From a virus (Duplodnaviria; Caudoviricetes): a stretch of DNA of 64,000 bases. The stretch lies in IMG/VR virus record IMGVR_UViG_3300033073_000160, positions 32,001 to 96,000 of that record. One strand, given 5' to 3'. The position numbers and the translations under genes are program-made. Positions 10,196 through 32,528 of the stretch are shown one piece after another. The notes under the pieces are model-generated. The model worked only from the letters and a program-made list of their open reading frames with translations, was not told the DNA's origin and made no database searches. The number at the start of each line of letters is the position of its first letter. Within the stretch, counting starts at the first letter, position 1.

Positions 10196-10491
10196 TGATT
10201 GACACTATCTTTGGGCCAACTATACAATGGATAAAAGATGATTGGGCATCTAACCGTTTACGTTTTATTATTGAGCTCCTTGCTTGGGCTATCTCAATTG
10301 GATGTAGCATCACAATGGCGGTCACGGTTCCCAATCCTCCACTCCTTGCTCTATATCCTATTTGGATCACTGGTTGTGCTATGTATGCTTGGGCTGCTTG
10401 GACTCGTAAATCTTTTGGCATGCTCGCTAATTACATTCTGCTCACCACAATTGATAGTGTTGGGCTGGTAAGGATGCTAAATAATTTATAA
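10195..10491 (+). CDS. small membrane protein (about 3 transmembrane helices)
   Basis: Three hydrophobic segments in 98 aa. Confidence 0.7.
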   Translation: MIDTIFGPTIQWIKDDWASNRLRFIIELLAWAISIGCSITMAVTVPNPPLLALYPIWITGCAMYAWAAWTRKSFGMLANYILLTTIDSVGLVRMLNNL

Positions 10492-10500
10492 GAAAGGTAA

Positions 10501-10545
10501 GCGGGCCATAAACCGCAATGTGGTATTTGCAAGCCATAAATTGCA
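10501..10545 (+). promoter_or_regulatory. tandem RNA hairpins with identical GCCAUAAA loops, putative translational operator of the DNA polymerase gene
   Basis: gcgg-gccataaa-ccgc (10501-10516) and tgcaa-gccataaa-ttgca (10528-10545), directly before AGGAG and the TTG start. Confidence 0.7.
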
Positions 10546-10557
10546 TAGGAGAAAAAT

Positions 10558-13224
10558 TTGAGTTACGTTGACGCATGGTTCAACCGCGATGACGATGTCA
10601 TCAAGATTGTTGAACGCAATAAAAAAGGTGAACGTGAATACAGGGACATCCCCGTAAAGCACACGTTTTACTACAAAGACCCAAAGGGCAAACACCAATC
10701 AATTTACGGAGATCCACTTAGCAGGATTGTCTGTAAAAACACAAAAGAACTACGCAAAGAACAAGCTATCAATTCAGGTAAGCAATTATTTGAAGCTGAT
10801 ATCAATCCGATCTTTGTTTGCTTGTCAGAAAACTATCTTAATCAAGATGCACCAAAACTCAATGTAGCGTTTTGGGATATTGAGGTGGACTTTGATCCAG
10901 AACGTGGCTACGCATCGCCGGATGATGCGTTCATGCCAATTACTGCGATTGCTGTTCACCTACAATGGTTAGACACCCTAGTTTGTTTGGCAGTTCCGCC
11001 AAAAACTATGACTATGGACCAAGCTAAAGAAGCTGTTGCAGAATTTCCTAATACATATTTGTTTGAAAAAGAATCGGACATGTTAGACATGTTCTTAGAT
11101 TTGATTCAAGATGCAGATATCTTAAGTGGTTGGAACAGCGAAGGCTTTGATATGCCGTATACTGTCAACCGCATTACAAAATCACTAAGCAAAGAAGATA
11201 CACGTAGACTATGCTTGTTTGACCAATTTCCTAAGAAACGTGAATACGAAAAGTTTGGTCGCGAGTCAGTTACATACGATCTAGTAGGTCGTGTCCATTT
11301 AGATAGTTTAGAGTTGTATCGCAAATACACATACGAAGAACGACATAGCTATCGACTAGACGCTATTGCAGAATACGAACTAAACGAACGTAAGACGCCA
11401 TACGAAGGATCGCTAGATCAACTATACAATCATGATTTTAAAAAGTTTATTGAATATAACAGACAAGATACTGCGCTGTTGGATAAACTAGATAAAAAGC
11501 TAAAGTTTATTGACCTTGCTAATACGCTGGCACACGAATGCACAGTATTGCTACAAACTACAATGGGCGCTGTTGCCGTTACTGAGCAAGCTATTATTAA
11601 CGAAGCGCATCGTAGAGGATTTCAAGTTCCCAACAGAACTAAAATGGACGATCGAGAAAGCAGCCAGGCGGCAGGTGCTTATGTTGCTTACCCTAAAGAA
11701 GGCATTCACGACTGGATTGGTTCGTTAGATATTAACAGTCTTTATCCGTCAGCTATTCGTGCCCTTAACATGGGGCCAGAAACTATTATTGGTCAGCTAC
11801 GGCCTTCAATGACTGAAGAATACATTCAAGGACAAATGGCTAAAGGCAAATCATTTGCGGCAGCATGGGAAGGTATATTTGGCTCATTAGAGTATACTGC
11901 TGTTATGAATCAAGAAATTGGAACAGAAATTACCATTGACTGGGAAGACGGTTCTAGTGATATGTTGAGTGCCGCAGAAGTATACAGGTTAATCTTTGAA
12001 AGTAATCAGCCGTGGGTAATCAGTGCTAATGGCACTATCTTTACATATGAAAAAGAAGGTATTATTCCCGGATTGCTAAAGCGTTGGTATGCAGAACGTA
12101 AAGAAATGCAGGCCAAACTCAAAGACGCTATTAAAGCAGGTAATAAGATTGAAGAAGAATACTGGGACAAGCGTCAATTGGTTAAGAAGATTAACCTAAA
12201 TAGTTTGTATGGTGCTATTCTTAACCCTGGATGCAGATTCTTTGATAATAGGATCGGACAATCAACTACGCTAACCGGTCGTCAGATTGCAAAGCATATG
12301 GCTGGAAAGGTCAATGAGATCATCACCGGAGAGTTTAATCACGTAGGTAAAGCTATTATTTACGGTGATACTGACTCTTGTTATTTTAGTGCATACAAAA
12401 CATTGCAGAAAGAAATTGATAGCGGGCAATTACCCTGGACTAAAGAAAGTGTTGTTCAACTCTATGACCAGATTGGAGAAGAAGTAAATCAAACTTTCCC
12501 ACAGTTTATGTTAGATGCTTTCCACTGTCCAAAGAGTCGCGGCGAAGTTATCAAAGCAGGACGTGAAATCGTTGGCTCAAAAGCATTGTTCATTACTAAG
12601 AAGCGTTATGCTGTTCTTTACTATGATAAAGAAGGCAAGCGTAGTGACGTAGATGGCAAGCCAGGTAAGATCAAAGCCATGGGTCTTGACCTAAAGCGTA
12701 GTGATACGCCTGAGTTTATCCAAAACTTCTTAAGTGATGTTCTTGAAATGGTGTTAACTGGTAAGACTGAAGAAGAAGTCCTTGATCATATTAGCGAGTT
12801 TAGACTAAAGTTTAAGAGTAGACCGGGTTGGGAGAAAGGTTCCCCGAAACGTGCTAATAAGATTACTGAATACGAAGCTAAAGAAAAGAAAGCAGGTAAG
12901 GCAAATATGCCCGGACATGTTCGTGCTAGCATTAATTGGAATACATTAAAGCGAATGATGAACGACAAATACTCAATGAGTGTTACTGATGGCGCTAAAG
13001 TTATTGTTTGCAAACTTAAACCTAATCCTATCGGGTTTACGTCAGTTGCATATCCGGTAGACGAATTGCGATTGCCGCAATGGTTTAAAGATCTTCCGTT
13101 TGACCATGCAGAAATGGAGCAAACTATTATCGACAACAAGTTAGATAACTTGATCGGTGTATTGAAGTGGGACGTTACTAGCACAGAGGAGAAGAACACT
13201 TTTAATAGCTTGTTCGAGTTCTAA
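10558..13224 (+). CDS. family B DNA polymerase with 3'-5' exonuclease
   Basis: DIEVD, GWNSEGFD, YNRQD (exonuclease); DINSLYPS, KINLNSLYG, YGDTDS, KKRY (polymerase); TTG start with AGGAG SD. Confidence 0.97.
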   Translation: MSYVDAWFNRDDDVIKIVERNKKGEREYRDIPVKHTFYYKDPKGKHQSIYGDPLSRIVCKNTKELRKEQAINSGKQLFEADINPIFVCLSENYLNQDAPKLNVAFWDIEVDFDPERGYASPDDAFMPITAIAVHLQWLDTLVCLAVPPKTMTMDQAKEAVAEFPNTYLFEKESDMLDMFLDLIQDADILSGWNSEGFDMPYTVNRITKSLSKEDTRRLCLFDQFPKKREYEKFGRESVTYDLVGRVHLDSLELYRKYTYEERHSYRLDAIAEYELNERKTPYEGSLDQLYNHDFKKFIEYNRQDTALLDKLDKKLKFIDLANTLAHECTVLLQTTMGAVAVTEQAIINEAHRRGFQVPNRTKMDDRESSQAAGAYVAYPKEGIHDWIGSLDINSLYPSAIRALNMGPETIIGQLRPSMTEEYIQGQMAKGKSFAAAWEGIFGSLEYTAVMNQEIGTEITIDWEDGSSDMLSAAEVYRLIFESNQPWVISANGTIFTYEKEGIIPGLLKRWYAERKEMQAKLKDAIKAGNKIEEEYWDKRQLVKKINLNSLYGAILNPGCRFFDNRIGQSTTLTGRQIAKHMAGKVNEIITGEFNHVGKAIIYGDTDSCYFSAYKTLQKEIDSGQLPWTKESVVQLYDQIGEEVNQTFPQFMLDAFHCPKSRGEVIKAGREIVGSKALFITKKRYAVLYYDKEGKRSDVDGKPGKIKAMGLDLKRSDTPEFIQNFLSDVLEMVLTGKTEEEVLDHISEFRLKFKSRPGWEKGSPKRANKITEYEAKEKKAGKANMPGHVRASINWNTLKRMMNDKYSMSVTDGAKVIVCKLKPNPIGFTSVAYPVDELRLPQWFKDLPFDHAEMEQTIIDNKLDNLIGVLKWDVTSTEEKNTFNSLFEF

Positions 13225-13225
13225 T

Positions 13226-13999
13226 ATGAAAATTATAATCGCAGGGTATGGATTTGTTGGCAAGGCAATTGCCAACGCCCTAAAACCAACACACGATGTA
13301 GTTATTGTAGATCCACAATATACTACAAACGAAATTAAGTATCATCACGATGCAGATGGGTTAATTATATGCGTTAACACTCCTACAGGTGAAAACGGTA
13401 TCATCGATGCTAATAATGTAGCCAATGTGTTAGATAATGTGCCGGTGTTCATGCCGGTGCTGATCAAAAGCACAGTAACTCCGGCAATCATAGATGCATT
13501 TGATGAAATATATCCCGACCTAGCTATTACGTATAGTCCAGAATTCTTACGTGCTAGAACAGCCAATGAAGATTTTTTAAACCAAAAATATGTTGTGCTA
13601 GGCGGAGAAGATCCGGAATGCTTCTGGCAAGAGCTATTCCAATCAACACTACCTAATTGTAAACTAGTTTTAAATTGCACAGCCAAAGAATCCGCTATGG
13701 TAAAGTATACTATAAACTCATTCCTTGCTCTTAAGACAAGTTTCTTTAATCAAATAGCAGACATTTGTGATAACAACGGTTTAGACTATGACATTGTTAG
13801 ACACATTGTTAGCAACGATACACGTATCGGTGCTAGCCACACTATGGTCCCAGGACCAGATGGTGAAAGAGGATGGGGAGGTGCTTGTTTCCCAAAAGAC
13901 ACAGAAGCATTTACACAATGGGCTAGAACTGTTGAACACCCTGTCACTATTTTAGAAGAAGCGATAAATTATAATCGCCGAATTAGAAAAAATGCTTGA
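13226..13999 (+). CDS. UDP-glucose/GDP-mannose dehydrogenase family protein (short form)
   Basis: GYGFVG Rossmann motif, CVNTP, IKSTV, SPEFLR, KY..NSFLA.K, GGACFPKD. Confidence 0.9.
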   Translation: MKIIIAGYGFVGKAIANALKPTHDVVIVDPQYTTNEIKYHHDADGLIICVNTPTGENGIIDANNVANVLDNVPVFMPVLIKSTVTPAIIDAFDEIYPDLAITYSPEFLRARTANEDFLNQKYVVLGGEDPECFWQELFQSTLPNCKLVLNCTAKESAMVKYTINSFLALKTSFFNQIADICDNNGLDYDIVRHIVSNDTRIGASHTMVPGPDGERGWGGACFPKDTEAFTQWARTVEHPVTILEEAINYNRRIRKNA

Positions 14000-14024
14000 C
14001 CTTTGTCAAAAACCTAAGTATAAT
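13996..14024 (+). promoter_or_regulatory. sigma70-type promoter with a TTGAC-N4-GTCAA palindrome on the -35
   Basis: TTGACC-17 bp-TATAAT. Confidence 0.8.
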
Positions 14025-14044
14025 CATAACACATGGAGAATCAT

Positions 14045-14776
14045 ATGAAAGATATTTTACAAGACCTAGTAGCACATACTCACAGCCTAGGTTTCTTACC
14101 ACTAGTTAAAATTACTGGTGCAGAAGATGCAACTCAAATTGAGTCGATGGCCGAAGACCGTTCAGTTGTTGTTACCGCTAAAACTCACACCCCTGTTGAA
14201 GAATTCGAAGGCACATTCGGTATGCCTAATTTAGAAAAACTCAACATTCATTTAAAGTGTCCAGAGTATAAAGAAGATGCTAAGATTAATGTTGTTCGCC
14301 AAACACGAAATAACGAAACTATTCCAACAGGTATTCACTTTGAAAATGCCGCAGGTGACTTTGTTAATGATTATCGTTTTATGAACGCAGAAATTATTAA
14401 CGAAAAACTTAAAACAGTTAAGTTTAAGGGCGCTAAGTGGGATATTGAATTCCAGCCAACAGTTGCTAATATTCAACGCTTAAAGTTTCAAGCAAACGCA
14501 CATAGCGAAGAAACAGTCTTCCAAGTTACAACTAAAGACGACAATTTAATTTTTAGTTTTGGTGACGCAAGCACACACGCAGGTTCATTTACATTCCAAA
14601 GCGGTGTAACTGGTAAACTAAAGCAAACATGGTCATGGCCTGTTGTGCAAATTATGAGTATCCTATCACTGGCAGGTGATGTTACTATGCGTATTTCAGA
14701 TATTGGCGCATTACAAATCACAGTTGACAGCGGTCTTGCTGAATACAACTACACACTACCAGCACAAGCCAAGTAA
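14045..14776 (+). CDS. probable DNA sliding clamp (gp45/PCNA-like)
   Basis: About 243 aa, beta-rich two-domain pattern, YTLPA C-terminus, near polB; ATG at 14045 follows a GGAG SD. Confidence 0.6.
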   Translation: MKDILQDLVAHTHSLGFLPLVKITGAEDATQIESMAEDRSVVVTAKTHTPVEEFEGTFGMPNLEKLNIHLKCPEYKEDAKINVVRQTRNNETIPTGIHFENAAGDFVNDYRFMNAEIINEKLKTVKFKGAKWDIEFQPTVANIQRLKFQANAHSEETVFQVTTKDDNLIFSFGDASTHAGSFTFQSGVTGKLKQTWSWPVVQIMSILSLAGDVTMRISDIGALQITVDSGLAEYNYTLPAQAK

Positions 14777-16311
14777 TGAATAAGAACCTGACAGCAACAC
14801 AGAACGACTACGCATACTTCTTGCCGGCTACGTCAGGTTTCTACTCAACTTTCATAGGTAAACAACGCTATGGAAATTACGTAGATCCTGCTAGAATCCC
14901 GGCAAGTTTTGCTAATGGCGTCGAAAGTCTAAATTACTTAGATCCAGATAAGGGTGCGTTCTACTACGACCATTGTTTGTATTCAGCAGGTCACGCAAAT
15001 TTAGATCTCAACAAGCAAGACGACAGCGAAGATATGTTCCGTAACAGGAACAGAGGAAATAGTTGGGTGTTAGGCGACTCAGGTGGATTCCAGATTGGTA
15101 AAGGTGTTTGGCCTGCTGACTGGAAAGATCCTAATTGCCCTAACGCTATGAAAAAGCGTAGCCAAGTATTAACTTGGATGGACACGCTCATGGATTACGG
15201 TATGATTCTTGATATCCCTGCTTGGGTTGCTCGTAGTCCTGCAGGGTCTAAGGCCACGGGTATTACAACTTACGCAGAAGCTGTTCAAGGAACTTACATT
15301 AATAACGACTATTTTATTAAGAATCGTAATGGCAACTGTAAGTTTTTAAATGTATTACAAGGCGAAAATCATGCGGATGCCGAGGATTGGTATCAACGTA
15401 TGAAGCATTACTGCGATCCTAAAAAGTTTTCTAATCATTTTAATGGTTGGGCAATGGGCGGACAAAATATGTGTGATATACATCTTGTCCTAAAGCGTCT
15501 AGTAGCATTAAGATTCGACGGATTACTAGAGCAAGGTAAACAAGACTGGATGCACTTTTTAGGAACAAGTAAATTAGAATGGGCTGTATTACTAACAGAC
15601 ATTCAACGTGCTGTTCGTAAATATCATAATCCTAACTTTACAATTAGCTTTGACTGTGCCAGTCCATTCTTGGCCACAGCTAACGGACAAATTTATATTA
15701 ACACAGAAACAGACGATCGTGAAAAGTGGGTATATCGTATGCAGGCAAGTGCAGACGATAAAAAATATGCGTCCGATACGAGACTGTTTAAAGATGCCGT
15801 ATTACAAGATGGTATTTTTAATAAATTTGAATCTAGTCCAATTATTGATCAAGTAGCTATAAAAGACATTTGTATATATGGGCCAAATGATGTTAATAAA
15901 CTAGGTAAGGTTGGAAAAACCTCCTGGGATAGTTTTAGCTATGCTATCATGATGGGGCATAACGTATGGATGCACGTTAATGCAGTTCAAGAAGCCAACC
16001 GTCAATATGACGCAGGACGCATTCCAAACATGCTAGTTCAAGAGCAATTTGATCAATTGTTCTTTAAAGATATTGTCGACGCAATATTTGCAACTAGCAA
16101 TCGAAGTGAAGCGGATGCAGTAGTTGAAGAATACAACAAATTTTGGATGAGTATTATTGGAACTCGTGGAGCAACCGGCAAGAAAACGGTTAATGCTCAA
16201 ACATATTCTGGTATTCACTTTGATATCGAAGCAGATTTATCGGACATTAAAAAGCCAGCCAAAGTAGAAACACCAGTCGTTAATACTTTTGCCAATCTAT
16301 TTGACGAATAA
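14776..16311 (+). CDS. dpdA: TGT-fold guanine transglycosylase, DpdA-like (7-deazaguanine insertion into DNA)
   Basis: LGDSGGFQ, MILDIP, NVLQG, GWAMGG, MHFLG, SFDCASP motifs of the TGT family; clustered with folE/queE and replication genes. Confidence 0.75.
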   Translation: MNKNLTATQNDYAYFLPATSGFYSTFIGKQRYGNYVDPARIPASFANGVESLNYLDPDKGAFYYDHCLYSAGHANLDLNKQDDSEDMFRNRNRGNSWVLGDSGGFQIGKGVWPADWKDPNCPNAMKKRSQVLTWMDTLMDYGMILDIPAWVARSPAGSKATGITTYAEAVQGTYINNDYFIKNRNGNCKFLNVLQGENHADAEDWYQRMKHYCDPKKFSNHFNGWAMGGQNMCDIHLVLKRLVALRFDGLLEQGKQDWMHFLGTSKLEWAVLLTDIQRAVRKYHNPNFTISFDCASPFLATANGQIYINTETDDREKWVYRMQASADDKKYASDTRLFKDAVLQDGIFNKFESSPIIDQVAIKDICIYGPNDVNKLGKVGKTSWDSFSYAIMMGHNVWMHVNAVQEANRQYDAGRIPNMLVQEQFDQLFFKDIVDAIFATSNRSEADAVVEEYNKFWMSIIGTRGATGKKTVNAQTYSGIHFDIEADLSDIKKPAKVETPVVNTFANLFDE

Positions 16312-16329
16312 AACCTAGACTGTTATAAT
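16301..16329 (+). promoter_or_regulatory. sigma70-type promoter
   Basis: TTGACG-17 bp-TATAAT; the following ATG at 16336 may give a leaderless mRNA. Confidence 0.75.
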
Positions 16330-16335
16330 CAAAAC

Positions 16336-16581
16336 ATGACATTACCAGACGAAAGATATCGAGCAGTATTATATACTAAGCAGTTCTTACAAGATTTGCT
16401 AGTCATGCCTCGTGTTTCAAAAACAATCAAAGATCATGCTCGGTCTTGTCTTCGACATTACCCCGACACTTGGGATATGCAACAAGCCGCTGAGGCTTGC
16501 CCTCATGTATTTGCAGAACGTATGGAAGAGGTAACTAGACTCTTTAAAAAATACGAACAAGGTAAAATAAATGAAACGTGA
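16336..16581 (+). CDS. hypothetical protein
   Basis: 81 aa, MTLPDERYRA...CLRHYP. Confidence 0.7.
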   Translation: MTLPDERYRAVLYTKQFLQDLLVMPRVSKTIKDHARSCLRHYPDTWDMQQAAEACPHVFAERMEEVTRLFKKYEQGKINET

Positions 16582-17095
16582 TTATGCCGACGGTGTAAAA
16601 GATGATATTATCTTCTTTATTGGCACAGAGATTGAACATACTCCTGCATACGGGTTAAAAACATTGTTTGTCACTGGCGTTCAAGAAGTTGATCAAATTG
16701 CATTCCATGCAATCGGTAATGAGTGTGAGCACATTTTCTTTGGTGCTAATCATAGTTTTAATCCTGCGTTCAACGATTATGCTGGTTGGAAAAAGTGGGA
16801 AGATATGATTGAGTATTTTCTAAGCGAAGGCTATCTGTGTAGTCTTGATATTCCACTAAGCGCAGTCGAAGAGTTTAATGACGGCGGCTTGAACGATTAT
16901 AATAATTTTATTCCACAGATAAGAGTTCCAATTCCGTATATTAAATTATGGAACTATAATACAATGCTTAAAATCGATGACAAAGATTTTAACGCTACTA
17001 ACCCCGGTGTATGGTCACATAGCCTACATACCCTTAAAGACCGTAGCAAGTTCACACCTTGGACAGCCTACAAAAACGATAAAGTATTAAAATGA
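16571..17095 (+). CDS. hypothetical protein within the deazaguanine cluster
   Basis: 174 aa, GTEIEHTPAYG and HIFFGANHSF motifs; translationally coupled to the T-fold gene. Confidence 0.75.
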   Translation: MKRDYADGVKDDIIFFIGTEIEHTPAYGLKTLFVTGVQEVDQIAFHAIGNECEHIFFGANHSFNPAFNDYAGWKKWEDMIEYFLSEGYLCSLDIPLSAVEEFNDGGLNDYNNFIPQIRVPIPYIKLWNYNTMLKIDDKDFNATNPGVWSHSLHTLKDRSKFTPWTAYKNDKVLK

Positions 17096-17481
17096 TTATT
17101 AAACAAGATATCCGTCCTAATAAAATGATTTGGGTTACCTTTCAAAAAGAAGGTATGCACAAGTATCCGGCCGCACTTACAGATCCAGCACTTGCCACAG
17201 GTGATGAATATGATGTAAGTTTTCTAGGCTATCCGCATCGTCACATCTTCCACTTCAAAGTTTGGATCAGTGTCACACACGACGATCGCGATATTGAGTT
17301 TATTCAATTTAAACGTTGGTTGCAAAATCTCTACGCAGATGCTACACTAAGTTTAGATTTTAAAAGTTGCGAAATGATGTCACAAGATTTATATGACAGC
17401 ATTTCACAAAAGTATCCAGGCCGTGAGGTTTGGATTGAGGTCTCCGAAGACGGAGAAAATGGTTCATTTATCAAATATTAA
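17092..17481 (+). CDS. T-fold QueD-like protein, best matching the DpdL (CDG decarboxylase) signature
   Basis: EGMHKY, LGYPHRHIF (LxxxHRHxF), RDIEFI, SCEM, VSEDGENG. Confidence 0.7.
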   Translation: MIIKQDIRPNKMIWVTFQKEGMHKYPAALTDPALATGDEYDVSFLGYPHRHIFHFKVWISVTHDDRDIEFIQFKRWLQNLYADATLSLDFKSCEMMSQDLYDSISQKYPGREVWIEVSEDGENGSFIKY

Positions 17482-17771: not shown

Positions 17772-18842
17772 ATGACAGTTTTCCTTGTTGACTTAGAATC
17801 AGTTGACACTAGGTATACTGGGCAGTGGAAAACCCATGTGCCTAGTTTACTTAGAAAGGCAGGACACAATGTTCAAATTATATCTGGTCCTACAGATATT
17901 CCTAGTGCGACCACTCCTGGCGCTTTTCTTAATTTTGGTGGCACCAATATATATAAGTCTAGCCAAGTTGAGCAAATGGGCCGTTTATTTTGTAACGGAG
18001 CCGTTCATCCCGGCGATCACTTTATCTTTACTGATGCTTGGCACCCTGGTATCATCAATCTAAAGTATATGAGTGAGCTACTAGGTATTCCTGTAGTTAC
18101 ACACGGACTATGGCATGCTGGCAGCTATGATCCCCAAGACTTTTTAGGACGACTTGTCGGTGATAAGCCGTGGGTCAGACACGCAGAGAAGAGTTTCTTT
18201 AATGCGTTTGATCATAATTATTTTGCTACAGAGTTTCATATTAACATGTTTGGTAAGAACTTACTTGACACTAATATTGGAACTATGTATAACTATAAAA
18301 CATCTGGAAAAATTATTCGCACTGGATGGCCTATGGAATACATGGACTCAACTTTGAACATGTATAAAAATATGCCCAAGCGAGATCTTATTCTATTTCC
18401 GCATCGAATTGCTCCAGAAAAACAAGTAGAAATTTTTAGAGATTTAAAAGAGCACTTGCCTCAATATGAGTTTGTTGTTTGTCAAGATCAATATCTAACA
18501 AAAAACGAATATCATAATCTACTCGGCGAGGCAAAACTAGTCTTCAGCGCTAATTTACAAGAAACACTTGGAATTAGTTGGTATGAGGGCGCAATAGTTG
18601 ATGCTATTCCTATGGTGCCAGATAGGCTTAGCTATAGTGAAATGGCATTTGATACTTTTAAGTATCCTAGCAAGTGGACTGAAAGTTTTGAAGCATATAC
18701 CGTATATCGTCCAGATATTTGTAAGGTAATCATAGAACATATGGAAAATTACAAAACTAGACTGCCAACTTTGCGAAAACAAACGGAGGCATTAAGTGAG
18801 CACTACTTCAGCGCAAGATATCTCATCGATAACATTCGATAA
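17772..18842 (+). CDS. GT-B fold glycosyltransferase (GT4-like)
   Basis: FPHRIAPEKQ and QETLGISWYEG (E-x7-E) donor-binding motifs, PDRLSYSEM. Confidence 0.8.
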   Translation: MTVFLVDLESVDTRYTGQWKTHVPSLLRKAGHNVQIISGPTDIPSATTPGAFLNFGGTNIYKSSQVEQMGRLFCNGAVHPGDHFIFTDAWHPGIINLKYMSELLGIPVVTHGLWHAGSYDPQDFLGRLVGDKPWVRHAEKSFFNAFDHNYFATEFHINMFGKNLLDTNIGTMYNYKTSGKIIRTGWPMEYMDSTLNMYKNMPKRDLILFPHRIAPEKQVEIFRDLKEHLPQYEFVVCQDQYLTKNEYHNLLGEAKLVFSANLQETLGISWYEGAIVDAIPMVPDRLSYSEMAFDTFKYPSKWTESFEAYTVYRPDICKVIIEHMENYKTRLPTLRKQTEALSEHYFSARYLIDNIR

Positions 18843-22556: not shown

Positions 22557-23261
22557 TTGGACACAAGTAAAAATCTATCGCAAGTAATCCGCGATAAAAT
22601 GAAAAGAGATAACAAACGCTTCTGGGCAGGCGACAATATCTCTGACTATCTCGACCAAGACGGTTACGATAAAGAACAACTAATTAACGAAGCAACTGTA
22701 GCATTTGAAAAGGTGCTAGATGCGTTGCTGATTGATCGTGAAAACGATCCCAACTCACACGGCACAGCAAGACGCCTTGCCAAGATGTATTTTAATGAAA
22801 TTATGGCAGGTAGATATGATCCAGCACCAGACGCAACAGCATTTCCAAATGACTCGGAGGACCGTTACGAAGGTATGTTGGTTGTTCGTAGTGAGCTTCG
22901 CAGTATGTGTAGCCATCATCACCAACCCGTTGTTGGCGTTGCTTATATTGGCATTATTGCCGCTCAAAAACTTATCGGACTTAGCAAATACACAAGAATC
23001 GCACAGTGGTGTGCAAGACGGGGCACTCTCCAGGAGGAGCTTTGTAACGACATTGCTAGGGAAATCGAAAAAGCAACCGGCGCAAAAGACTTAGGTGTTT
23101 ACATCCAAGCCACACACGGTTGCTGTGAGAATCGTGGTATTATGGCGCATAGTAGTTTAACACAAACTACAGTCTTAAAAGGTGCATTTAAAGACGATCC
23201 GGGAACAAAGAAAGAGTTCTTTGACAATATCAAAATGCAACAAGAATTTTCACCGAGGTAA
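22557..23261 (+). CDS. folE: GTP cyclohydrolase I
   Basis: SMCSHHHQP, IGLSKYTR, LQEEL, HGCCENRG motifs; TTG start after GGAG. Confidence 0.95.
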   Translation: MDTSKNLSQVIRDKMKRDNKRFWAGDNISDYLDQDGYDKEQLINEATVAFEKVLDALLIDRENDPNSHGTARRLAKMYFNEIMAGRYDPAPDATAFPNDSEDRYEGMLVVRSELRSMCSHHHQPVVGVAYIGIIAAQKLIGLSKYTRIAQWCARRGTLQEELCNDIAREIEKATGAKDLGVYIQATHGCCENRGIMAHSSLTQTTVLKGAFKDDPGTKKEFFDNIKMQQEFSPR

Positions 23262-25450: not shown

Positions 25451-25794
25451 TGACTCCACAAATTCCAGCAGAAGGCATCCTTAAACGCAACGATTGGGGC
25501 GATTCTAAAATGTATCAAGTCGTCTGCGGATGCGGGCAACCCGATCACGATCATAATGTTTGGATAGAAGCAGATGATGGCAACATTAGTGTCACTATAT
25601 ATGTCACTGCTAAAAGCAAATGGTGGGAATTAAATCGGTTTAAACAACTGTGGAGTTTGCTCAGTAAGGGCTATATCAAATGTGAAACTGATGTTATAAT
25701 GTCAGAGCAGCAGGCCATTAACTATGCGGAAACATTAAAGTCTGCGGTTAACGATAGTAAAGAATTTAGGAAAAAAAGAAATGTCAAAAATTAA
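25450..25794 (+). CDS. hypothetical protein with a CxC...H motif
   Basis: VCGCGQPDHDH possible Zn site. Confidence 0.65.
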   Translation: MTPQIPAEGILKRNDWGDSKMYQVVCGCGQPDHDHNVWIEADDGNISVTIYVTAKSKWWELNRFKQLWSLLSKGYIKCETDVIMSEQQAINYAETLKSAVNDSKEFRKKRNVKN

Positions 25795-26635
25795 AATCGC
25801 AGAATTATTTTATTCAATCCAAGGTGAGGGGCGCTATATGGGTGTCCCTTCGGTGTTTCTGCGCACATTTGGCTGTAACTTTAAGTGTGCCGGCTTTGGT
25901 ATGCCTAAAGGAGAGTTAAGTAATGAAATTGAACCTATTGCACAACGTATTGCAGAATTTAAAAGTTATGAAGAGCTTCCGCTTGTTAGCACAGGTTGTG
26001 ATAGTTACGCTAGTTGGGATCCTCGTTTTAAAGATCTCAGCCCGATGCTTACAAGCGATGGCATTGCAGAACGTATCTGCGAAATCCTTCCGTTCAACGA
26101 GTGGCAAGATGAGCACTTGGTAATCACAGGCGGTGAGCCATTACTTGGTTGGCAACGTGCTTATCCGGACTTGCTCAATCATCCTAAGATGAAGAACTTA
26201 AAAGAGATTACGTTTGAAACTAATGGCACTCAAAAGCTAACTCCAGAATTTAAAGAATTTTTAATTGAGTGGCAAATGCCGCATGTAGATTTTACGCCCG
26301 AAGTTACGTTTAGCGTCAGTGCTAAACTAAGTTGTAGCGGAGAAGCAAGACACGAAGCAATTCGTCCAGACATTGTATGTGAATATGAGGAGGTTGGCTA
26401 CACTTACCTTAAGTTTGTAGTAGCAACAGAAGAAGATGCAGAAGAAGCAATTGAAACAGCAGACATTTACAGAGCCGAAGGGTTTACAGGACCCGTTTAT
26501 CTTATGCCAGTTGGTGGGGTGGAGTCTGTTTATACTCTTAATAATCGCAGGGTCGCTGAACTAGCAATGAAAAATGGCTTACGCTATTCAGATCGTTTGC
26601 AAGTTCCATTATTTAAAAATGAGTGGGGAACATAA
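25781..26635 (+). CDS. queE: 7-carboxy-7-deazaguanine synthase (radical SAM)
   Basis: ELFYSIQGEG, FLRTFGCNFKC...GCDS, ITGGEP, ETNGT, R.SDRLQV.L. Confidence 0.92.
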   Translation: MSKIKIAELFYSIQGEGRYMGVPSVFLRTFGCNFKCAGFGMPKGELSNEIEPIAQRIAEFKSYEELPLVSTGCDSYASWDPRFKDLSPMLTSDGIAERICEILPFNEWQDEHLVITGGEPLLGWQRAYPDLLNHPKMKNLKEITFETNGTQKLTPEFKEFLIEWQMPHVDFTPEVTFSVSAKLSCSGEARHEAIRPDIVCEYEEVGYTYLKFVVATEEDAEEAIETADIYRAEGFTGPVYLMPVGGVESVYTLNNRRVAELAMKNGLRYSDRLQVPLFKNEWGT

Positions 26636-29626: not shown

Positions 29627-30715
29627 ATGAGTGAAGTTATTTCCCGCACAGTAGGCCCTAAGGGCGCCAAAAAAAGTCTGCGCAAGGCTTTTAAAAATAA
29701 ACGCCCGGTGTTCCTGTGGGGGCCTCCCGGTATTGGTAAATCGGACATTATCAAGCAGTTGGGTGCAGAGCTTGACGCTCATGTAATTGACGTTCGTTTG
29801 TCTCTTTGGGAACCTACCGATATTAAAGGTATCCCGTATTTTGATAGCAATACAGGCAAAATGGTTTGGGCTCCTCCGCTTGAACTTCCTGATGCCGAGC
29901 TTGCATCCAAACATAAGCAAATTATCCTGTTCATGGATGAAATGAACTCTGCGGCACCTAGTGTGCAGGCGGCGGCTTATCAGTTGGTGCTGAATCGTCG
30001 TGTTGGCACATACGAGCTTCCAGACAATGTTGTAATGGTTGCCGCTGGTAACCGCGAAACTGACAAGGGTGTTACTTATCGTATGCCTGCTCCGTTGGCT
30101 AACCGTTTCGTTCACTTGGAAATGACAGTGGATTGGGATGACTACTTTGAGTGGGCTACTGAGCAGAAGATTCATAAGGACGTAGTTGGTTTCCTTACTT
30201 TCTCTAAGAAAGATCTATATGACTTTGATCCGAAGTCAAGCTCACGTGCATTTGCTACTCCTCGCTCTTGGTCGTTTGTTAGCGAGTTGCTTATTGACGA
30301 CGACACTGACACAGACACTCTTACTGACTTAGTTTCTGGTGCAATCGGTGAAGGTCTTGCTGTTAAGTTTATGGCTCACCGCAAAATTGCATCCAAAATG
30401 CCTAACCCAGAAGATATTCTGAGCGGCAAAGTTAAGAAGATGGATTCAAAAGAAATCTCTGCAATGTATTCTTTGACTGTTAGTCTGTGCTACGAACTCA
30501 AGGATTCAAACGATAAGAAGGCTAAGAACTGGAACGATCAAGTTAACAACTTCTTCGAGTTCATTATGAACAACTTTGAAACTGAGTTAGTTATTATGGG
30601 CACTAAATTGGCGTTGTCTAGCTACAAACTGCCGCTGGATCCAGACGAGATTGCTTGTTTTGATGACTTCCATGCAAAATATGGCAAGTATATTTCGGCT
30701 GCAACTGAAAAATAA
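29627..30715 (+). CDS. MoxR-like AAA+ ATPase
   Basis: Walker A GPPGIGKS, Walker B LFMDE, AAGNR, PLANRF, TPRSW. Confidence 0.9.
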   Translation: MSEVISRTVGPKGAKKSLRKAFKNKRPVFLWGPPGIGKSDIIKQLGAELDAHVIDVRLSLWEPTDIKGIPYFDSNTGKMVWAPPLELPDAELASKHKQIILFMDEMNSAAPSVQAAAYQLVLNRRVGTYELPDNVVMVAAGNRETDKGVTYRMPAPLANRFVHLEMTVDWDDYFEWATEQKIHKDVVGFLTFSKKDLYDFDPKSSSRAFATPRSWSFVSELLIDDDTDTDTLTDLVSGAIGEGLAVKFMAHRKIASKMPNPEDILSGKVKKMDSKEISAMYSLTVSLCYELKDSNDKKAKNWNDQVNNFFEFIMNNFETELVIMGTKLALSSYKLPLDPDEIACFDDFHAKYGKYISAATEK

Positions 30716-30731
30716 ATTGGTATAGCACCAT

Positions 30732-30760
30732 TTGACACCGCCCTGGGGCGGTGTTATACT
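30732..30760 (+). promoter_or_regulatory. sigma70-type promoter whose spacer is a GC-rich palindrome
   Basis: TTGACA-17 bp-TATACT; acaccgccc-tg-gggcggtgt at 30735-30754. Confidence 0.8.
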
Positions 30761-30787
30761 ATATACTATAGCAAATAAGGAATACAA

Positions 30788-31990
30788 ATGGCACACGCAG
30801 ATCCAATTATTGATAAAATTATTGTAGCACGAGTCGGCTTGCTACTTCGCCATCCATTCTTTGGCAATATGGCTACTCGCCTTAAAATTGCAGATGGCAG
30901 TGACTGGACTACTACTGCGGCTACAGATGGTCGCACCATCTACTTCAATCGAGACTTCTTTAGTCCGTTGACTACTAAACAAATCGAATTCGTTATTGCA
31001 CACGAAATTATGCATAATGTGTTTGATCACTTGTCGCGTCGTGAAAGCCGTGACCCTAAACTGTTTAACATTGCTGCCGACTATTGTGTTAACGGACAGT
31101 TGGTGCGTGACCGCATTGGCGACTTGCCTCCTAAAGAGCTTAAAATCTTCCACGATACCAAATACTACGGTAAAAGTGCAGAAGAAATTTATGACGAGTT
31201 GTATGATCAATACGATGACGAGCAGTTGCAAGCACTAGGTCGCTTGCTCGATGACCACGTTGATTGGGGTAACAGCAACGGTCAAGACGGCAATGGACAA
31301 AACGGTAATAAGCCTTCTTATACCAAAGAAGAACTTAAACAGATCCGTGACGAAATTCGCGAAGCTACTATGCAGGCAGCGCAGGCTGCTGGTGCAGGTA
31401 ATGTTCCTGCAAACATTGCTCGAATGATTAAAGAGTTGACCGAGCCTAAAATGAACTGGCGTGAAATCTTGCGTCAGCAAATCCAAAGCACTATTCGCAA
31501 CGACTTTACATTCCAACGTCCTAACCGTAAAGGTTGGCATATGAGTGCAATTTTGCCTGGTATGAATTATGACGAGACAATTGATATTTGTGTATCAATT
31601 GATATGTCAGGATCTATTGGTGACGAGCAGGCTAAAGATTTCCTAAGCGAAATCAAAGGCATTATGCAAGAGTATAAGGATTTTAAAATTAAACTCTGGT
31701 GCTTTGATACTAGTGTATACAACGAGGCAGACTACGACGGCTACTCAATGGACGAGTTCGACGAGTATGAACCTCAAGGCGGTGGTGGCACCGAGTTCGA
31801 TGCAAACTGGGAATACATGAAAGAACGTGATATTCAACCTAAAAAGTTTATCATGTTTACTGATGGTTACCCATACGGTAGCTGGGGCGATGAGAACTAC
31901 TGCGATACTGTATTCATCATTCACGGAAACAACACGATTGTTCCGCCATTCGGTGAGTATGCTTACTACGACAATTCCGATGCAACTTGA
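30788..31990 (+). CDS. HExxH metallopeptidase-like plus VWA domain protein (DUF2201-type), MoxR partner
   Basis: TAATDG, AHEIMH, NIAAD, MIDAS DMSGS, GGGGT, FTDG. Confidence 0.88.
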   Translation: MAHADPIIDKIIVARVGLLLRHPFFGNMATRLKIADGSDWTTTAATDGRTIYFNRDFFSPLTTKQIEFVIAHEIMHNVFDHLSRRESRDPKLFNIAADYCVNGQLVRDRIGDLPPKELKIFHDTKYYGKSAEEIYDELYDQYDDEQLQALGRLLDDHVDWGNSNGQDGNGQNGNKPSYTKEELKQIRDEIREATMQAAQAAGAGNVPANIARMIKELTEPKMNWREILRQQIQSTIRNDFTFQRPNRKGWHMSAILPGMNYDETIDICVSIDMSGSIGDEQAKDFLSEIKGIMQEYKDFKIKLWCFDTSVYNEADYDGYSMDEFDEYEPQGGGGTEFDANWEYMKERDIQPKKFIMFTDGYPYGSWGDENYCDTVFIIHGNNTIVPPFGEYAYYDNSDAT

Positions 31991-32528
31991 TTTAGATTCA
32001 TTTAGCAGTGGTCAAGTAGAAAGTAAGTTGTGGGCGGCCGAGCATTTAGAACAATGCATTAAACAACATAATATCGGCCCTCTAGATATGTATATTCTAG
32101 GGGGCTGGTATGCCCTACTACATTTTATATTACAAATTAGACAACAAGTTACAATTAATAGTTGTAGGAGTTTTGATTTAGATCCGAGTGCGTGTTCTAT
32201 GGCAAATGTTATTAATAATACTTGGGAATCTAAAAACTGGGCATTTAGAAGTTTTCCTCAAGATATTGAAACAATAGATTATCCCTTGCACGTTAACTGT
32301 GTAATTAATACGAGCACAGAACATATTAAATCAAACGAATGGTTTGATCGTATTCCTAAAGGCACCCTGTGCTTGATTCAGTCAAATGACCTAGTGCATA
32401 TTGATCACATTAATACAGTTACTAGCACCTCAGAACTAAAACAGAAATATAATCTTTCAGAGTATTATGTTGAAGATAGCAAAGCTATGGGCACATACAC
32501 AAGATATATGATTATAGGTAAGAAATAA
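31980..32528 (+). CDS. class I SAM-dependent methyltransferase-like protein
   Basis: ILGGWY glycine loop, SFDLD acidic motif, INTSTEH; ATG at 31980. Confidence 0.55.
   Translation: MQLDLDSFSSGQVESKLWAAEHLEQCIKQHNIGPLDMYILGGWYALLHFILQIRQQVTINSCRSFDLDPSACSMANVINNTWESKNWAFRSFPQDIETIDYPLHVNCVINTSTEHIKSNEWFDRIPKGTLCLIQSNDLVHIDHINTVTSTSELKQKYNLSEYYVEDSKAMGTYTRYMIIGKK

Follow-up and report, generated by a model that had tools for sequence, protein, structure and literature searches.

A peptide shared by the DNA polymerase and a TGT/DpdA-type enzyme of a giant freshwater phage suggests docking of base exchange on the phage sliding clamp

Why do a DNA polymerase and a second enzyme, encoded on either side of a sliding-clamp gene in a giant phage, end in nearly the same short peptide? 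The locus lies in a stretch of 64,000 nucleotides (positions 32,001 to 96,000 of IMG/VR virus record IMGVR_UViG_3300033073_000160; here called the window, with position 1 as its first letter), which is part of a 115.9-kb virus record with a CheckV completeness of 31%. The source is a giant phage from freshwater, and its relatives are abundant uncultured phages; at least 599 stretches in IMG/VR are related to the locus, and the longest relatives with clamp homologues measure ~356 to 363 kb. The genes follow one another on the plus strand, in the order family B DNA polymerase (PolB; 10558 to 13224), UDP-glucose dehydrogenase-like gene (13226 to 13999), clamp gene (14045 or 14033 to 14776), and a gene for a 511-aa protein of the tRNA-guanine transglycosylase (TGT)/DpdA type (14776 to 16311), referred to below as the transglycosylase. 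By analogy with T4 and RB69, we propose, with a probability of roughly 60%, that the transglycosylase docks on the phage sliding clamp via its LF peptide and so stays attached to newly synthesised phage DNA. The features that bear on this proposal, with structural evidence from AlphaFold2 (AF2) models and their predicted local distance difference test scores (pLDDT), are as follows.

10558 to 13224, plus strand: family B DNA polymerase, 888 aa, TTG start (Pfam DNA_pol_B 2.1e-36; exo domain 1.7e-18; phrog_262 3.9e-201)
13195 to 13221, plus strand: PolB C-terminal peptide NTFNSLFEF, candidate clamp-binding motif, conserved with synonymous codon changes
14045 to 14776, plus strand: PCNA-type sliding-clamp subunit, 243 aa, with an alternative start at 14033 (247 aa) (AF2 and Foldseek; phrog_12062)
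14774 to 14778, plus strand: TAATG overlap of the clamp stop and the transglycosylase start, read directly from the sequence
14776 to 16161, plus strand: TGT/DpdA-type catalytic core, residues 1 to 462 of the 511-aa protein (AF2, Foldseek, VIA, and invariant residues)
16162 to 16308, plus strand: low-confidence C-terminal tail, residues 463 to 511 (pLDDT <50; short helices at 478 to 488 and 505 to 509)
16282 to 16308, plus strand: terminal peptide NTFANLFDE, candidate clamp-binding motif (LF[DE] invariant; unique, with PolB, in the genome)

PolB ends in EEKNTFNSLFEF and the 511-aa open reading frame (ORF) in PVVNTFANLFDE. The two tails, NTFNSLFEF and NTFANLFDE, thus read as described in an earlier, sequence-only reading of the window, which had proposed that both proteins are tethered to the clamp. 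Among the 116 ORFs of the genome, only these two have a C-terminal F..LF[DE]x. The expected number of further ORFs with NTFxxLF among their last 12 residues is 3.8e-4 for the genome, and none of 2000 shuffles produced one; chance is excluded as the source of the likeness. ORF-tail surveys of the window genome, Vibrio 2.275.O, and a 223-kb relative (G001) found the peptide on the polymerase and the transglycosylase only, and the clamp-loader ORFs of the window genome have C-termini without the motif. The PolB tail is encoded by AAC ACT TTT AAT AGC TTG TTC GAG TTC, which contains no -35 box. Because the transglycosylase tail is written in different codons, the likeness lies at the level of the peptide and not of the DNA. 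A degenerate DNA pattern for FxxLF[DE] matched five long relatives at control level, and the ORF-tail census was used instead.

Comparisons with close relatives covered the 80 closest loci, in which every complete transglycosylase copy keeps xxFxxLF[D/E]. PolB keeps NTFN[S/K]LF[D/E]F throughout the relatives (46 distinct DNA versions), and the LF[DE] of the transglycosylase is invariant in 51 distinct DNA versions that use six Leu codons; across both proteins, four Thr codons and six Leu codons are used while the residues are fixed. This pattern indicates selection at the peptide level. The motif occurs in two layouts. Layout 1 is that of the window and of some relatives, with the motif at the C-terminus and a degenerate, HFDIE-like remnant at the internal position:

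16201 to 16230, plus strand: TYSGIHFDIE, residues 476 to 485, degenerate counterpart of the internal motif of relatives, at the same position after the IIGTRGATGKKTVNA block

Layout 2, found in most relatives, places T(M/Q)FANLFDE(V) immediately behind the conserved IIGTRGATGKKTVNA block and ~30 residues before the C-terminus, with an acidic EF..KLDxLE segment after it. This second segment has the form [DE][DE]F..x(5-9)..(K/A)L(D/E)xLE and is absent from the window copy. The conservation on which the earlier reading depended is borne out: the motif is conserved in close and distant orthologues, but it is internal rather than terminal in most close relatives and in the phage PA5oct. The flexible linker that had been postulated agrees with the model, in which residues 463 to 511 have a pLDDT of <50 and a short helix covers the motif. 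The acidic segment lies C-terminal to the LF motif in most relatives and in distant family members (L005:7995-9545, L082:6998-8620 [PA5oct], P0121, P0125, P0127, P0130, and P0143); in G001, it occurs on the transglycosylase only. A further protein with the same type of tail was observed in G001 (G001:C1:160228-160803, in L179, minus strand). Its gene is an insertion 3' of the transglycosylase gene; the 191-aa protein ends in STYTSLFEETV, has a D..EVK pattern recalling PD-(D/E)xK nucleases, and has no homologue in the window genome.

The 243-aa protein has no sequence match in Pfam, NCBIfam, or the Protein Data Bank (PDB). Its AF2 model, based on a 28-sequence alignment (pLDDT 92.6; predicted template modeling [TM] score 0.89), consists of two beta-alpha-beta domains. 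In a Foldseek search with this model, PCNA and related clamp chains made up all 50 matches listed (E ~1e-11; TM score 0.62 to 0.71), and the match extends over the full length, i.e., two clamp-fold domains in one subunit of ~240 aa. The sequence-only reading depended on this protein being a clamp, and the PCNA-type fold obtained with AF2 and Foldseek bears that identity out. Its start was also assumed correctly, as the MKD at 14045 is the start conserved in relatives, and the TAATG overlap with the transglycosylase gene, from which translational coupling had been proposed, is present. The clamp gene does lie between the PolB and transglycosylase genes, as had been stated, but so does a 257-aa dehydrogenase-like gene, which occurs in some relatives only and is absent beside PolB in many. 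A clamp homologue is located next to or after PolB in seven distant lineages (PA5oct, Vibrio 2.275.O, Phosso, Atu_ph07, 121Q, and the metagenomic lineages L085 and L089). A profile search for diverse clamps gave matches from the same freshwater clade only, single distant queries against viral contigs gave almost none, and PF09116 (the gp45 C-terminal domain) had no match in five relatives and none in control genomes either. In the window genome, a clamp-loader-type AAA+ gene (PF13177, above the Pfam cut-off) lies upstream of the window at a distance of ~10 kb, and four relatives have one as well. The PA5oct clamp homologue (L082:5915-6661) is annotated as a "structural protein" from virion mass spectrometry, which is unexpected for a replication clamp.

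The identity of the 511-aa protein follows from its fold and its invariant residues. An AF2 model based on 92 diverse homologues (pLDDT 90.9) matched TGT in a Foldseek search (E 2.5e-6; probability 1.0), and a VIA comparison with tRNA-guanine transglycosylase gave a Z of 19.7 and a root mean square deviation of 4.5 A over 306 residues (residues 7 to 421). Residues D101, S102, G103, and G104 (DSGGFQ), D146, H260, and D293 (in an FDC-type strand) are invariant or nearly so in the 92 diverse sequences; from the motif context and general knowledge of TGTs, we take D101 and D293 to be the equivalents of D102 and D280 in the Z. mobilis TGT. By this model-based evidence, which supports the TGT/DpdA-type identity proposed earlier, we place the protein in the TGT/DpdA superfamily, as a long and so far unclassified member of it; its family has 968 representatives at 50% clustering. 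Deazaguanine genes lie near the transglycosylase gene in the window genome and in relatives; those of the window are the following.

22557 to 23261, plus strand: GTP cyclohydrolase I (FolE), first step of 7-deazaguanine synthesis (Pfam PF01227 6.7e-39)
25781 to 26635, plus strand: QueE-like radical-SAM protein (weak Pfam Radical_SAM and Fer4_12 matches)

At the counterpart position of the QueE-like gene, PA5oct has a gene annotated as 7-carboxy-7-deazaguanine synthase. The most likely activity of the enzyme is the replacement of guanine in phage DNA by a 7-deazaguanine that the FolE and QueE-like enzymes of the phage would supply, with both the DNA substrate and the inserted base putative and this genomic setting as indirect evidence.

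PolB tails of the same type were found in PA5oct, Vibrio 2.275.O, Phosso, Atu_ph07, 121Q, L085, and L089. Five of these lineages give the following pairs of polymerase and transglycosylase peptides.

PA5oct: PolB HFDSLFGW; transglycosylase NSFNSLFDV, then an acidic tail
Vibrio 2.275.O: PolB NNTDLFDW; transglycosylase NNNDLFGW
L085: PolB AMKLFNY; transglycosylase AKSLFEF
L089: PolB LSTFFEF; transglycosylase NLSLFEF
Phosso: PolB TTFNDLFTF; transglycosylase IVEGLF

In Vibrio 2.275.O, only 2 of 502 ORFs (i.e., those of PolB and the transglycosylase) have such ends, against 1.8e-4 expected. Across 95 family representatives, the density of the motif in the last 60 residues is 8 to 32 times that in the remainder of the protein. 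To compare partners within and between lineages, tails were aligned on the LF anchor and identities were counted by hand over 7 positions. Strict co-variation of the PolB and transglycosylase peptides was rejected, as own-pair identities were 0 to 4 of 7, no higher than those of some cross-pairs; co-variation is thus suggestive only, and the claim made from these sequences is that of a shared motif class. One member without the motif (L138:5343-12135) is encoded in a bacterial genome beside QueC, a QueE-like radical-SAM protein, and PTPS, with no polymerase or clamp in the island. A resolvase, an integrase, and a 1528-aa NB-ARC protein flank this island, which has the look of a mobile or defence-type element. 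The distant "TGT domain-containing protein" of Vibrio phage vB_VcorM_GR7B (L137:2674-4290) has a Lys-rich basic tail of ~45 residues instead of the LF motif, which may be another way of staying on DNA. As for the polymerases, the gene is split by an intein or a Hef-like homing-endonuclease insert in PA5oct (L082:608-5834) and L085 (L085:3955-8154), and that of Atu_ph07 (L093:972-3941) is annotated in two pieces; in all three, the clamp-type tail is on the C-terminal piece.

The sequence-only reading had cautioned that the last codons of the transglycosylase gene also encode a -35 box. This caveat stands. The two best sigma-70-like sites in 10300 to 17200 exactly bracket the clamp-transglycosylase pair:

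13996 to 14024, plus strand: sigma-70-like promoter candidate TTGACC-17-TATAAT, 5' of the clamp gene (11/12 matches)
16301 to 16329, plus strand: sigma-70-like promoter candidate TTGACG-17-TATAAT (11/12 matches; -10 hexamer preceded by TG), which overlaps both the stop and the final codons of the transglycosylase gene

A promoter within the tail codons was considered as the cause of the shared peptide and rejected, since the PolB tail has no such box, the codons of the two tails differ, and the residues are kept through synonymous changes.

The proposed mechanism draws on the clamp of T4 and RB69. In T4, gp43, gp55, and gp33 bind gp45 through similar hydrophobic-acidic C-termini, which are interchangeable and also work when internal (PMC2988020), and T4 ligase has a gp45-binding loop that was first predicted, from its resemblance to the gp43 tail EKASLDFLFG, and later confirmed (PMC6212786). 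This gp43 tail compares with the window PolB tail. Like these gp45 clients, the transglycosylase shares with the polymerase a short hydrophobic-acidic peptide, which follows a flexible linker and may be terminal or internal (PMC2988020, PMC6212786). The system differs in that the client would be a DNA-modifying enzyme that exchanges bases, a kind absent from the known clients of gp45; that the model of the window clamp is nearer to PCNA than to the Pfam family of gp45; and that the motif is FxxLF[D/E], as opposed to LDFLF in T4. By this analogy, NTFANLFDE and NTFNSLFEF would dock in a hydrophobic pocket of a trimeric PCNA-type clamp. By remaining on the new duplex or travelling along it, the clamp would keep the enzyme attached to phage DNA and enable it to scan for target guanines. 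Clamp binding is what we infer, and with it the place and timing of action at the fork.

Several observations weigh against this proposal. The 511-aa protein has no sequence match in Pfam (including TGT), NCBIfam, PHROG, or the PDB, and it has no conserved Cys cluster corresponding to the TGT zinc site CxCxxC...H, with only C366 (59%) and H395 (88%) being common. The peptide does not follow a canonical clamp-binding consensus (QxxLxxFF or LDFLF), N-T-F-x-x-L-F-[D/E] resembling both. About half of the 95 family representatives scored carry no such motif, and the ..IVEGLF tail of the Phosso transglycosylase bears a loose likeness to its polymerase tail. The window PolB tail is as similar to the PA5oct transglycosylase motif (4/7) as to that of its own partner. 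Finally, the promoter-like site at 16301 to 16329 overlaps the codons TTT GAC GAA of the transglycosylase.

These points, with others, also bear on what else the peptide might do. Since the tie between the peptide and the clamp is drawn by analogy, the same peptide could dock both proteins on another hub of the replisome (e.g., the single-strand-binding protein, helicase, or primase), and the second acidic EF..KLDxLE segment in many relatives suggests more than one partner. This alternative is unlikely, although it is the strongest of those weighed here: in T4 and RB69, the family B polymerase carries its clamp-binding tail at the homologous position (PMC2988020, PMC6212786), and the clamp gene lies between the two genes and overlaps that of the transglycosylase. 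A tail that has nothing to do with docking, serving instead in degradation, localisation, or packaging or merely reflecting the -35 box, would fit the overlap of TTGACG with the codons TTT GAC GAA and would sit well with the annotation of the PA5oct clamp homologue as a virion structural protein by mass spectrometry. We regard it as improbable, because the PolB tail has no -35 box and the two tails use different codons; moreover, the motif is internal in most relatives, far from any gene end, its residues are kept through synonymous changes, and its carriers are the polymerase and the transglycosylase only.

The clamp could also be the docking site of an enzyme that acts on tRNA or competes with the polymerase as a regulator, instead of modifying DNA. 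The best structural matches are indeed tRNA-guanine transglycosylases, and the modification of DNA in the window phage is so far a prediction. Nevertheless, a clamp that encircles DNA tethers enzymes acting on DNA, a DpdA-family protein is reported in all phages known to have 7-deazaguanine DNA (PMC10516641), and the DNA of PA5oct appears to be modified at G (PMC12191111), so that we give this explanation equally little credence. Coincidence between two short motifs of simple composition has hardly any probability left, in view of the expectation of 3.8e-4, the 0 of 2000 shuffles, and the recurrence of the motif in independent distant lineages. Clamp docking of the transglycosylase accordingly remains our preferred reading, as an analogy. 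A broader version of it, which we put forward only tentatively and consider doubtful, is that clamp docking would make base exchange processive and co-replicative in jumbo phages, replacing DpdB and allowing dense replacement of guanine; the EF..KLDxLE segment would give another replisome protein its own handle on the enzyme, and the transglycosylase would be an integral component of the replisome instead of acting freely after replication.

Apart from the genes discussed above, the region includes small genes, a phosphoribosyltransferase gene, the FolE and QueE-like radical-SAM genes, and a FEN/RNase H gene further downstream of the transglycosylase gene. The dehydrogenase-like gene is the following.

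13226 to 13999, plus strand: UDP-glucose/GDP-mannose dehydrogenase-like protein, 257 aa (Pfam PF00984 1.9e-22; PF03721 2.2e-11)

Together with a 356-aa gene without a family match (17772 to 18842), it flanks the clamp-transglycosylase pair; the 356-aa gene also adjoins the transglycosylase gene in PA5oct and Vibrio 2.275.O. At 29627 to 31990, the window encodes a MoxR-type AAA+ ATPase (362 aa), followed by a DUF2201 metallopeptidase/VWA protein (400 aa).

With the phage and bacterial DpdA proteins (bDpdA and DpdA1 to DpdA4), the family described here shares the TGT-superfamily fold, the catalytic aspartates, and the linkage to FolE, QueE, and related genes in phage genomes (PMC6884629, PMC10516641). 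It differs from them in its length (~510 to 600 aa), the lack of a Pfam TGT match, and the lack of conserved zinc ligands. The comparison by sequence was made with DpdA3 only (phage phiST; CGPG_00065, 259 aa) among DpdA1 to DpdA4 and indicated a weak relation, with an hhalign probability of 88% over only 83 columns; the phiST protein has no LF tail, and a tblastn search for DpdA3 did not reach the Campylobacter phages. Bacterial DpdA requires the ParB-like ATPase DpdB (PMC10164549), whose place the clamp would take in the broader, doubtful version given above. Phage DpdA-type enzymes are considered to be post-replicative in their action (PMC10516641), and PA5oct virion DNA is resistant at G-containing restriction sites (PMC12191111). 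A role on DNA and the need for a DNA-loading partner are consistent with the DpdB requirement, the post-replicative action, and this restriction resistance.

Among eukaryotic enzymes of DNA modification and repair, DNMT1 and UNG2 are tethered to PCNA. They resemble the proposed system in that a base-editing enzyme is recruited by a short linear motif to the replication clamp on the new duplex, and they differ in their chemistry (methyl transfer and uracil excision), in their canonical PIP box, and in being cellular rather than viral. Full-text literature searches found no published link of DpdA or deazaguanine insertion to a sliding clamp, and a clamp is mentioned in neither of the two key DpdA papers. 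New here are the terminal and internal layouts of the tail, its second, acidic motif, the evidence at the level of codons, the bacterial member that lacks the LF motif, the gene for a clamp loader, and the bracketing of the clamp-transglycosylase pair by promoter-like sites.

Published work describes 7-deazaguanine insertion as post-replicative and leaves unexplained how an enzyme working base by base could find a genome of several hundred kilobases and saturate it, and what replaces the ATPase partner of bacterial DpdA. A clamp-docking peptide would offer a concrete, testable mechanism for a family with about a thousand clusters at 50% identity, of which PA5oct is a cultivable member. If this mechanism is true, DNA hypermodification would join the polymerase, ligase, and late transcription as processes organised on the phage sliding clamp.

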